Below, in pieces: positions 23,775-27,175 of a DNA stretch of 64,000 nt; the first letter of the stretch is position 1, and each line of letters begins with the position of its first letter. The translations under genes were made by a program, and so were the position numbers. Source of the stretch: Trichodelitschia bisporula (Eukaryota); the NCBI GenBank assembly GCA_010356995.1, contig ML996687.1, positions 249,803 to 313,802 on the forward strand, given 5' to 3'. Under the pieces are notes generated by a model. The model saw only the letters and a list, made by a program, of their open reading frames with translations. It was not told the DNA's origin and did not search any database.

Positions 23775-24420
23775 CGTCTCAAAGCGTTCTGGAGGTGGCC
23801 AGCGCCTCGTCGCTGCGATGCAATGTTGCTGTCCGTCTCAAGATACTGAATCCGTTGCAAGTGAAGGAGATGACTGAGAACCAAAAAAAGCTCTACGCCA
23901 TGGGTGCAACAGGCGATAGAATGCAGTGAGTCTGGCTGAGAAACAACAGAGAGTGACAGGTCAGTATATTGAGGTAGGCAAAACAGAAACGGGCTGGGAA
24001 GAAGGATAGAGGTAATGGCCGTAGCCCATAGGCACGGAATTCGGAAACTGCATGCTGGGGGGGATAGGAGTAGCAGGCGATACAGTCGAGCTTGCTATGG
24101 GCATCTTTCAGAAAGAAGCATAGAACACAAATGAGCGAGTCTCTATTAGAGAGAAAGAACAGCAGAGGTCCTTCGTCTGTACTAAGGAAGGAGCGCATTT
24201 CTGTATTCCGGTTGCCGTGAGCATACGGGTAGTGCCGGTTGGCGCCAAATAGTGTGGCATTAACCTCCTCGTCACGTTCAAAGTCCAGACGGAATACTAC
24301 GATTTTCCTGGGGCCAATCCGCTGCATCAGACCGTCAGCTGGGTAACCGAAAGAAGGGATGAGGTTGGGAAGGACTGTCGTTACATACCAAGATAGACGC
24401 GTGTCAGCCACACGGTGCAA

Positions 24421-24450: not shown

Positions 24451-24568
24451 CATCACCTCTTGCTCTGCTGCAAGGAACGCAAAAAAAAAAAAACATCAAA
24501 AATTTCCATAGTCAATCTGGGCGCACTGCCACTCATACGCACAACGGCTTCATCCTCCCGGCACCATC

Positions 24569-25063
24569 TCAGGACTCAATTGAAAGAGCCTTCAATCCGA
24601 CCACCCTCTCCCCCTTCTTGTCCACACTAACCACGAAGTACTCCACCCTCGTGCCATCCAGCACTACCTTAAAGAAGTGCAGCTTTCCATCACCGGCCTT
24701 TCCGACTGCATCAACGACCTTGGCATATTCACCCTGGGAATCGAAATCCTCCTGCTTGATCTTCTCGGCCTTATCCCCAATCAACTTGCCGAATTCCCCT
24801 TCTGAAATCAGCTTCATCGCCCCAGATCAATGGGAAGCAAGCAGACCTTCTGACAGTTCCACATCGCGACTCCATTTCAAACTAACGGGCTCAAACGGTT
24901 CATCTGCCTCGGAAACATAGTACTCCTCGACGCCGAGCAGCGCAGCCGGAACATCCGTATCGACGGCCTTGTTCCTGACCTCACCCTTCGACTCTTCGGT
25001 TGGATAGCCCGTGTCCTGGTTCGCCTTGTCAAGGAAGGCGGCGTAATCCTCGTCGCTGCCCAT
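24569..25063 (-). CDS. Small acidic protein resembling nuclease A inhibitor NuiA; intron 24802-24846 (NAGNAG acceptor); optional in-frame N-terminal extension from ATG 25318
   Basis: MGSDEDYAAFLDKANQD...YYVSEADEPFEPV...|GEFGKL...RVEYFVVSVDKKGERVVGLKALSIES*. GTCTGC donor, CTGAT-type branch point, CAG/AAG acceptor. Confidence 0.8.
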
Positions 25064-27175
25064 GGTGGATGGAGTAGAGCGGAAGGCGCGGTTTCGGAGT
25101 GTGAATTGAGTGCAAGATGTTACGGCGGGGCTTGCACGGATATCGGTAGTTATTCGCTGATGGCCGAAGTGGTGGTGGCGTAGGCGAGAAAAGTTATAGC
25201 AGGTCGAAAGGTTTTGTTCACGGATGATTGTCCGAGTGTACACTGTATACTGCAGGCATGAATGATATCGAGGGAGGAAGCAAGCAGGCAGGCGGAATGA
25301 CATAATGGGCCTTGGCATCTACTGGACGTTGGTGTTCGAGATCTTTGGGGCACGAGCGTGACGAGGTACTAACGCGTCGTGCGCGTATCTAGCGGGAGTG
25401 GCGGCCCAATAAGACTGTCCCCCTGGAACTGGGGAACGGGCGTGACGGGGAACGGGGTACTCACCAATCCCTCCTCACTCGCTCACTATCTCCCTGACCC
25501 CACCGATCAGTTGCCCCTCCCCACGAGGGTGAAAACGACAATACGCACGCATACTGCCCCTCTACTGCAGAGTGACAGCTTCACGCTGACGACATCAACA
25601 TAGCAGGCGATAAACAATCATCCAAACTCGATCTGTGCATGCAGATGGATGTCCAAACTACACTTGACAAGTTTGTTGAATCTCTCTCCGTTGTTGCGAC
25701 TCAGAGTGAGTGAGGAAGAGCAAGGACGAATGAGGAAGCAGGCACGGCAGACACCAATGACGAGAAAGTCTGGGGTGAGCTCTCCATCTGACAAGGGTCT
25801 GGACGATGCTCTAGACGCCAAGTGGTTGTCAAAGCCAACATCACTTCATAAACCCCAAAGTCAATTCCAAGGGGCCCAACACCCGGATTCTCGAGATAGC
25901 GTTTCCGTGATACCCTAGATGGCCATATATCCACGAGCTGACACGCCTGGAGCCTTTAGCAGGCCGTTAACAACGGCAGTTCGCCGTTAAGCCGTTTGGT
26001 CACGTGATCAGCCACGCAGTCCTCTGCACAACATGAAATCGACCTGACAGGATCTAAATCAAATTCAGAAAAGTCTGTTTCTTGAAGCCAGAAGCTCAAT
26101 GAAGTGTCTATATAGTGGGTGCAATAGCACGTGTAGAGGCGCTGCAGTCCACTCGAACCCCTGCTGCCTGCCGGGCTAAGCATCTGGAGTCTTTCCAGGA
26201 CTGAGGCCCCCCCCCATCACTTCCCATCCCCAGAGCATCCCATTTTCCTCTCACCACCCATGCCCGTAGCGAATTTCTTCAACGACATCTAATGAACTAG
26301 CCGTGCACAGATTTTGCATTAGCTTCGGTACGAGTTTGAAAAACGTATGAGCCATCTCTCTTTAATTTCTGTTGGTCGGGGACAGATGCCCGAGTGTCGA
26401 CCCAGCCTTGCAATATGATTAAGCAACGGCCAGCAATGCGGTGATGCAAGCTCATATCTGGAAGTCTGCATCATCGGTAGCCCGTTAGAAGCAAAAGGAG
26501 TCATTGAGAATTCCCTAGAGCAATGAGCCGTTCGATGCACAAAAGCCTCCGACCCGGTTGTCAATCGTAAAGTAGGTGAGCCCAACCGTGGACTGGCTGA
26601 GGTGCACTCTGTGAAATTGGAGAGCTGGCACCCTCTGAAGGCGTCCCAGGATGCATCTGGACCCAACAAGCAAGTCCGTAGGCTCAAATCGGACTGGTGC
26701 GGCTGTATAAATGCGAAATACCATGAACAAGGCTGGAAATCTCCAACGAAGCCTGTCAGCCGGATAATGAGCGTACTCAGCATATCCAATGCCTCTGGCC
26801 GTTCCAAACCACAAACTGGTATCATTGGGGGCCCTGTACGAATGCTGCAAATGAGAAGGGGATTACCGCGTGCGTAGCCAGGTGAGGAGGGGTCGGGGGT
26901 CGGATGTCCAGCACATGCGCCAAGGAACTGACCTGCACTTAAAGGACGCATCCCCCCCCCAGGATCGAACTCTCTTCCTCGTCGCCCGTGCCCCAACACC
27001 CATTCCTTGCCCCCCCAAACCTTCTTCTCTCACCCACACCCCATCTCTTCCTGTTGCGTTGCCAACGTTCATGCACTAGGTCGGGTGCACCAAAATCACA
27101 TCTGTCATTTTTCTCCCCCTCATTTATCCCCCCTCAACTGTCCGGCATCGATTGGGTCGGTTGCGCAACGCCAGC

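Follow-up and report, generated by a model that had tools for sequence, protein, structure and literature searches.

The nuclease EndoG/Nuc1 is toxic and has been linked to cell death, to the turnover of mitochondrial DNA and, in yeast, to defence against double-stranded RNA viruses (PMC6697816). Among the systems closest to the one discussed here is a bacterial one: NuiA of Anabaena (Nostoc) PCC 7120 (PF07924; structures 1J57 and 2O3B) guards against a secreted nuclease, NucA, and its C-terminal residue takes the place of a water molecule to bridge the metal of NucA (PMC2790893). The protein inhibitor of EndoG described in the sources consulted is EndoGI of Drosophila, which blocks the active site with acidic residues and has been proposed as an insurance against leaked or mis-sorted EndoG; it has an unrelated, all-helical fold, evolved independently of NuiA, is reported from Drosophila species, and is mostly nuclear (PMC2790893). 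A further parallel is offered by dual-AUG proteins such as aminoacyl-tRNA synthetases, described in Cryptococcus and Neurospora, in which a weak upstream AUG and a presequence-like spacer precede a strong downstream AUG (PMC7049704). Here we consider a gene on the minus strand (25063-24569) of a stretch of 64,000 nucleotides from the filamentous ascomycete Trichodelitschia bisporula (assembly GCA_010356995.1, contig ML996687.1, positions 249,803 to 313,802; hereafter the window, whose numbering is used throughout), which encodes a full-length member of the family PF23151, a name that in Pfam denotes likeness to NuiA only.

NuiA is the top fold match of the fungal protein, the two are colinear from S23-E24 to T135 of NuiA, and the fungal protein is predicted to sit at the same DRGH site of a homologous nuclease. 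Unlike NuiA, it is eukaryotic and encoded by an intron-bearing gene, is just 12-14% identical, is longer by some 35 residues at the N-terminus, where an invariant helix lies, has an optional presequence, and would target a dimeric mitochondrial enzyme rather than a secreted one. With EndoGI it would share the target, but it is homologous to NuiA and is predicted to have a mitochondrial isoform. As for the dual-AUG arrangement, the mechanism is common, but we did not find its use reported for a nuclease inhibitor, and in some lineages of the fungal gene it has been lost. On balance, we lean towards the view that the gene encodes a NuiA-type competitive inhibitor of Nuc1 made as a cytosolic and a mitochondrial isoform; taken separately, inhibition of the fungus's own Nuc1 is likely, and the same can be said of a mitochondrial isoform existing in the family. 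Whilst the family name was already known, the target, the second binding element and the dual-start design would be new. Indeed, a search of titles and abstract openings, with subscription journals and supplements outside its reach, returned no description of a PF23151 target, of a role for the extra helix or of an optional presequence, nor any paper on the fungal family, and a 2026 review of nuclease inhibitors, in the part available, mentions NuiA for Anabaena only (PMC13522737).

Gene structure and family membership

The features of the gene are as follows:

25063-24569, minus strand: NuiA-like gene, short form, in two exons, with a 48-nucleotide intron bridged by contigs of presumed RNA runs
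25064-25318, minus strand: N-terminal extension of 85 codons in frame, presequence-like by sequence; the frame is open, basic and acid-poor in orthologous loci
25218-25259, minus strand: upstream open reading frame of 13 codons from the out-of-frame ATG 25259, within the extension, read from the sequence
24847-25063, minus strand: first exon of the short form, beginning with the conserved ATG 25063, which has A at -3 and G at +4
25022-25054, minus strand: helix D84-A94, not aligned to NuiA; predicted second contact with Nuc1
24902-24913, minus strand: S131-E132-A133-D134; E132 aligns with NuiA E24 and is placed by the model at the Nuc1 DRGH site
24799-24846, minus strand: intron, 48 nucleotides, GT..AG, using the distal AG of a CAGAAG acceptor; joint present in contigs of X1 and X2
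24569-24798, minus strand: exon 2
24569-24580, minus strand: C-terminal I-E-S-stop, in register with V-E-T135 of NuiA

In each of two runs, X1 and X2 (presumed RNA, although no run is recorded as such, and from one sample), one contig skips the 48 nucleotides from 24846 to 24799, and since the contigs show this joint only, a 45-nucleotide intron ending at the proximal CAG was rejected. The acceptor is a tandem one, CAG-AAG (24799-24804), at which the proximal AG would add one Glu; the distal AG alone is seen used. Splicing yields a protein of 148 amino acids, in keeping with the figure of about 150 in the initial annotation, and both motifs singled out there, YYVSEADEPFE and the C-terminal end VEYFVVSVDKKGERVVGLKALSIES before the stop, are present. 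This protein is identical to residues 81-228 of the database protein P0001, whose numbering we follow and whose source record is a hypothetical protein of T. bisporula annotated from ATG 25303; that start is the gene caller's choice and is no evidence of use.

Upstream, the frame 24827-25318 carries the 85-codon extension into ATG 25063 and on to the splice donor. Its first ATG, at 25318, directly follows an in-frame TAG and has T at -3, and the second, at 25303, has A at -3. The composition first noted for this extension can be read directly from the window: 12 Arg, 1 Asp, 1 Glu, 8 Ser and 11 Thr, with the RAFRST end extending to RAFRSTPST and no transmembrane stretch. The X1 and X2 contigs span 24480-25235 at most, which leaves 25236-25464, with both upstream ATGs, uncovered; as contigs cannot show starts, they argue neither for nor against upstream ATG use.

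P0001 matches PF23151 (NuiA_2, 'NuiA-like') with an E-value of 2e-46 and 158 bits against a cut-off of 27, over model positions 2-154 of 154, and each exon alone also exceeds the cut-off; the resemblance to NuiA had therefore already been catalogued. The family is large, with 788 representatives when clustered at 50% identity (E<=0.001). From the 150 listed we drew 86 members, picked for coverage of the whole profile, and added 24 from another listing of relatives to obtain an alignment (A2) of 110 full-length orthologues, all of which match PF23151. Among the matches listed, every named relative is a filamentous ascomycete, from Pezizales, Dothideomycetes, lichen-forming classes, Penicillium, Aspergillus, Leotiomycetes, Fusarium, Cordyceps or Hypoxylon, and together they span the Pezizo-, Dothideo-, Lecanoro-, Eurotio-, Leotio- and Sordariomycetes; no named yeast, Taphrinomycotina or basidiomycete match occurs among the best 120 of 150 and the best 120 of 338. 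The family records seen are labelled 'hypothetical' or 'uncharacterized', and the 86 pattern matches in viral contigs include no relative. In the ESM Atlas, PF23151 clusters are 95-98% Eukaryota, and bacterial PF07924 clusters come next, both by features and by structure (template modelling score, TM, 0.61-0.65). The same atlas contains a Bacteroidota cluster of 104 members in which a NuiA domain is fused to a HIT/DcpS_C domain.

By profile search, the window gene is the single PF23151 match in the T. bisporula genome, which likewise holds a single PF01223 match: an intronless Nuc1 of 334 amino acids with a DRGH motif. The window lies on contig C1 and this Nuc1 gene on contig C8, which agrees with the earlier remark that no cognate nuclease is present in the window and differs from the bacterial arrangement, where nuiA stands tail-to-tail with a nuclease gene (L083, L084 and L087). 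Two cyanobacterial plasmid nuiA clusters (L083, 491-4510; L084, 1215-4507) comprise one or two non-specific nucleases and an S1/P1 nuclease. The T. bisporula genome also contains one PF14040 match, on contig C20, and gave no match to PF13930 or to PF07924, the control for PF07924 likewise matching nowhere.

Conserved positions and the predicted Nuc1 complex

The likeness to NuiA put forward in the initial annotation gains computational support from relatives of P0001 and from the predicted fold. Just under half of the orthologues (54/110) match the PF07924 NuiA profile at E<=0.01, the best at 5.8e-9. The AlphaFold2 model has a predicted local distance difference test (pLDDT) score of 92-97 over residues 121-228; residues 84-94 form a helix set apart from this domain, and confidence in the extension is low. 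NuiA comes first in two fold searches with the model. In Foldseek, the comparison suggested at the outset, the top match is NuiA 2o3b_B (E 7.9e-3, probability 1.00); in VIA-align, over 48,161 chains, it is NuiA 1j57_A (Z 5.7, root-mean-square deviation 3.3, 104 residues aligned, 116-228 onto 12-143). A profile-profile alignment with cyanobacterial NuiA from plasmid records is colinear from the S-E motif to the very last residue, pairing E132 with E24 and S228 with T135 of PCC 7120. A sequence search of the PDB with a separate alignment, A1, gave no match up to E 10.

The positions expected to matter in a NuiA-type inhibitor are well conserved. At position 132, 77 of the 110 orthologues have D and the other 33 have E; position 134 is D or E in all of them, and the final residue is S or T in 108, with nothing beyond it. 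Because A2 had been picked for reaching the end of the profile, DNA loci were checked too (the best 80 of 134 metagenome loci): 74 of the 76 scored end in VES, IES, VET or VQS before the stop, and the other two in LMR. A C-terminal carboxylate acting as a ligand would require just such a chain end, kept exactly throughout the family. NuiA E24, the counterpart of E132, is reported by Ghosh et al. (2007) to have an active-site role. The helix D84-A94 is without counterpart in the NuiA alignments, and its residues D84, Y87, F90 and L91 are invariant in all 110 orthologues.

Would such a protein fit the species' own Nuc1, with the C-terminal Ser at the active site, as the initial annotation had asked? 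We predicted the complex from P0001 81-228, two copies of Nuc1 (70-334) and two Mg, leaving our own alignments unused. The score was 0.90 in all three runs, compared with 0.00 for the best of 3 controls, and the runs share at least 84% of contacts, with a partner pLDDT of at least 89. Of 78 solved complexes, 51 attain the score mark, as do 2 of 108 mismatched pairs; among eukaryotic pairs, 39 of the 65 that have no like complex attain it, and 2 of the 126 that are unrelated, although these counts are only approximate when a ligand is present. In the model, E132 contacts D154, R155, G156, H157, G185, N189 and R190 of Nuc1, whilst A133 and D134 contact residues 148-155; residues 226-228, the terminal Ser included, lie within the predicted interface, at D154-H157/N189/R190, with no direct Mg contact reported by the tool. 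Residues 82-101, for their part, are placed against Nuc1 219-222, 246 and 268-293, and the Nuc1 residues touched by the helix (L219, P220, H246 and V268/P270) are near-invariant in 118 aligned close Nuc1 relatives. As NuiA has no such helix, this contact could hardly have been copied from 2O3B, and a second contact with Nuc1 would give a reason for the invariance of the helix.

In the scheme that we favour, a single-copy Pezizomycotina gene would encode a protein that competes with the substrate of Nuc1/EndoG, the mitochondrial nuclease of the fungus itself. The NuiA-fold domain (about 116-228) would mimic the substrate, with its acidic S-[DE]-x-D loop and its free C-terminal carboxylate both entering the DRGH/Mg site, and the helix D..Y..FL..AN, borne on a flexible linker, would dock in an adjacent hydrophobic groove of Nuc1, adding affinity or specificity. 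The short form would serve as a cytosolic or nuclear guard against Nuc1 that is mis-sorted or released from mitochondria, whereas the long form, with a cleavable matrix-type presequence, would guard mitochondrial DNA and RNA if the nuclease were to reach the matrix; the choice between isoforms may be made by leaky scanning and/or by alternative transcription starts.

The N-terminal extension and its upstream starts

Starts were found in 79 of the 80 loci, and 72 loci plus the window had at least 300 nucleotides upstream. These 73 loci form 44 clusters at 90% identity of the 150 upstream nucleotides, each represented by its first member. Upstream of the conserved ATG, 41 of the 44 groups keep the coding frame open over 50 codons or more, versus 13 and 14 for the other two frames, and a looser grouping gives the same picture (30/32 versus 8/32 and 7/32). 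Within 180 nucleotides upstream there are 10 stops in the coding frame versus 74 and 64 in the others, and between 180 and 1,200 nucleotides the three frames have similar numbers. In-frame ATGs are most numerous at 180-270 nucleotides upstream (36 versus 17 and 19 in the other frames), and an in-frame ATG lies 20-125 codons upstream in 32 of the 44 groups, at a median of 72.

The encoded extensions are basic and acid-poor, with a mean net charge of +9.2 and 1.25 Asp plus Glu, versus +3.4 and 3.4 for the same DNA read in other frames, and with 11.1% Arg versus 7.6 and 6.4%. Their 17-residue hydropathy maximum is 1.28, compared with 1.98 in the N-terminus of Nuc1; none is transmembrane-like, so a matrix-type signal would fit better than an anchored one. 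At -3, 20 of the 32 nearest upstream ATGs have a pyrimidine, whilst 42 of the 44 conserved downstream ATGs have a purine there, a combination of weak upstream and strong downstream start also described for dual-localised proteins of Cryptococcus and Neurospora (PMC7049704). In the window, the out-of-frame ATG 25259, which the initial annotation does not mention, stands between the upstream ATGs and ATG 25063.

The loci without an in-frame ATG 20-125 codons upstream include L025, L026, L040, L041, L044 and L073, and seven others lacking it have long open frames of a different type. Since the frame is kept in most loci and lost in some, the long form appears to be widespread and under selection, yet dispensable in some lineages. 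One locus, L023, lacks a 54-nucleotide intron of its twin L029, with which it is colinear over 1,500 nucleotides upstream. It would thus be a spliced contig that reaches across the upstream ATGs in another species, but it was not counted, as it may join neighbouring transcripts or DNA.

The named Leotiomycete orthologues have an extension of another type, which starts MG-[AVIMT]-[ILV]-[LI]-S/A and continues into a Lys/Arg run (P0167, P0182, P0186, P0190, P0194, P0220 and P0456, and upstream of L082). We take this start to resemble an N-myristoylation site followed by a polybasic membrane anchor, and it may represent a third localisation; several extensions of this type retain 'R-x-F-x-S' near the conserved ATG.

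The downstream neighbour in the window is a KRE6/SKN1 beta-glucan synthesis gene (PF03935; 21425-24495, minus strand), also found downstream in at least three unrelated orthologous loci (L009, L029, L049/50/53 and L071, with flanks of 1,500 nucleotides only). Between the two genes lies a GT..AG intron of 67 nucleotides (24322-24388, minus strand), which is skipped in one X1 contig. That contig runs from 25172 through the NuiA-like gene into the KRE6/SKN1-like gene, and its spanning of both shows no single transcript.

Rival readings and biological meaning

Several observations weigh against a two-isoform inhibitor of Nuc1. P0001 itself has no PF07924 match at E<=0.01, the profile-profile alignment with cyanobacterial NuiA has a probability of only 19-22% at an E-value of about 1e-3, and the fold scores are modest, with Maf1 second at Z 4.9, within 1 of NuiA, and would not suffice by themselves. 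A structure of the NucA-NuiA complex exists (2O3B), and over 210 amino acids Nuc1 shares 29% identity with NucA, so that the model may have reproduced a known active-site pose; a pass in the complex test is likeness, and not proof that this family member binds. Location is a further difficulty: yeast Nuc1 is listed as an inner-membrane protein (PMC2275078) and EndoG is targeted to the intermembrane space (PMC2790893), and a matrix form would for this reason not meet Nuc1 in healthy cells. Regarding the extension, the statistics on locus groups ignore kinship among loci, and the conservation on which the initial annotation had staked dual targeting is partial. The open frame and presequence-like composition recur across orthologous loci, whilst an in-frame ATG 20-125 codons upstream is missing in 23 of the 73. 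These include 7 of the 9 near-identical loci L012-L020, a cluster represented by the intact L012, and in L036 and 7 of those 9 loci, indels of 1 nucleotide break a frame that is open in close relatives. Related pairs show no phase bias (13 indels in threes versus 16 not), a cleavage-like motif, R-x-[FLYI]-[SHT], is not enriched (8/32, shuffles 5.6), and the amphipathic moment is just slightly above that of shuffles (0.594 versus 0.544 ± 0.023), 8 of 300 of which reach it.

Losses of the extension in several lineages and among near-identical loci, together with the unremarkable cleavage motif and the mostly nuclear location of EndoGI, the known animal inhibitor, would suit a protein that does inhibit Nuc1, but in the cytosol or nucleus only, the extension being an untranslated leader under most conditions or a tolerated addition, and serving import rarely or never. 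We consider this unlikely, as stops are depleted solely in the coding frame and solely within 180 nucleotides, in-frame ATGs peak at a set distance, and the composition departs from that of the other frames, a combination for which translation under selection is needed in most lineages. The target, on the other hand, could be a different nuclease, either a foreign NucA/Serratia-type enzyme from bacteria or competing fungi or the fungus's own secreted-type PF14040 nuclease, with the fit to Nuc1 a mere family likeness. Close cousins of true partners do pass the complex test (10/12), the genome does hold one PF14040 match, and bacterial NuiA does guard against a secreted enzyme. However, a mitochondrial presequence suggests that the target, too, is mitochondrial, the model gives confident contacts between Nuc1 and the helix that NuiA lacks, and Bacillus NucA/NucB-type enzymes are inhibited by the unrelated Nin (PMC5758888); we regard a different nuclease as quite improbable.

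Perhaps, instead, the NuiA fold has been given a new job with no regulation of a nuclease in vivo, for instance as a general acidic mimic of nucleic acid, an adaptor of the Maf1/PsbP/Mog1 fold or a folding chaperone for Nuc1. The closeness of Maf1 to NuiA in the fold search, the low identity to NuiA and a gene without genomic linkage to the nuclease gene would all be at home here, but the two strictest positions besides the N-terminal helix are predicted to sit in the nuclease active site, the exact chain end among them, and half of the orthologues match PF07924 by sequence. We think there is little chance that such a job is the answer. A role in uniparental mitochondrial inheritance is not proposed: in Cryptococcus, deletion of NUC1 is without such an effect (PMC7016115).

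For the competitive inhibitor with two isoforms, the analysis establishes the structure of the gene, its family, the constancy of the key positions and selection on the upstream frame; the complex is a model prediction, and inhibition, import, isoform use and a physiological role in cell death or antiviral defence are inferred. A broader picture can also be drawn, though it is tentative and in our judgement somewhat doubtful. Filamentous ascomycetes may have turned bacterial NuiA into a two-point clamp on their own EndoG, placed on both sides of the nuclease compartment through alternative starts, as a switch for released Nuc1 in cell death, antiviral defence and turnover of mitochondrial DNA. 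In yeast, a meiotic programme releases Nuc1, which attenuates double-stranded RNA viruses of the cytosol (PMC6697816), whereas the EndoG homologue of A. nidulans is reported to be without a role in farnesol-induced death, whilst yeast Nuc1 acts in death (PMC5613156). It is tempting to speculate that an inhibitor in filamentous ascomycetes would bear on both the yeast and the A. nidulans observations, and it could explain why the two differ in cell death.

If the inhibitor reading holds, the NuiA family would include a protein that inhibits a eukaryotic EndoG and that sets how far released Nuc1 acts in hyphae, which have a common cytoplasm. A small and tight EndoG inhibitor would also make a useful reagent for expressing these nucleases and switching them off, and a conserved, single-copy inhibitor would offer a handle on how cells survive leaked EndoG. 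For filamentous fungi themselves, the meaning would be that the nuclease of cell death and antiviral defence comes with a built-in brake.

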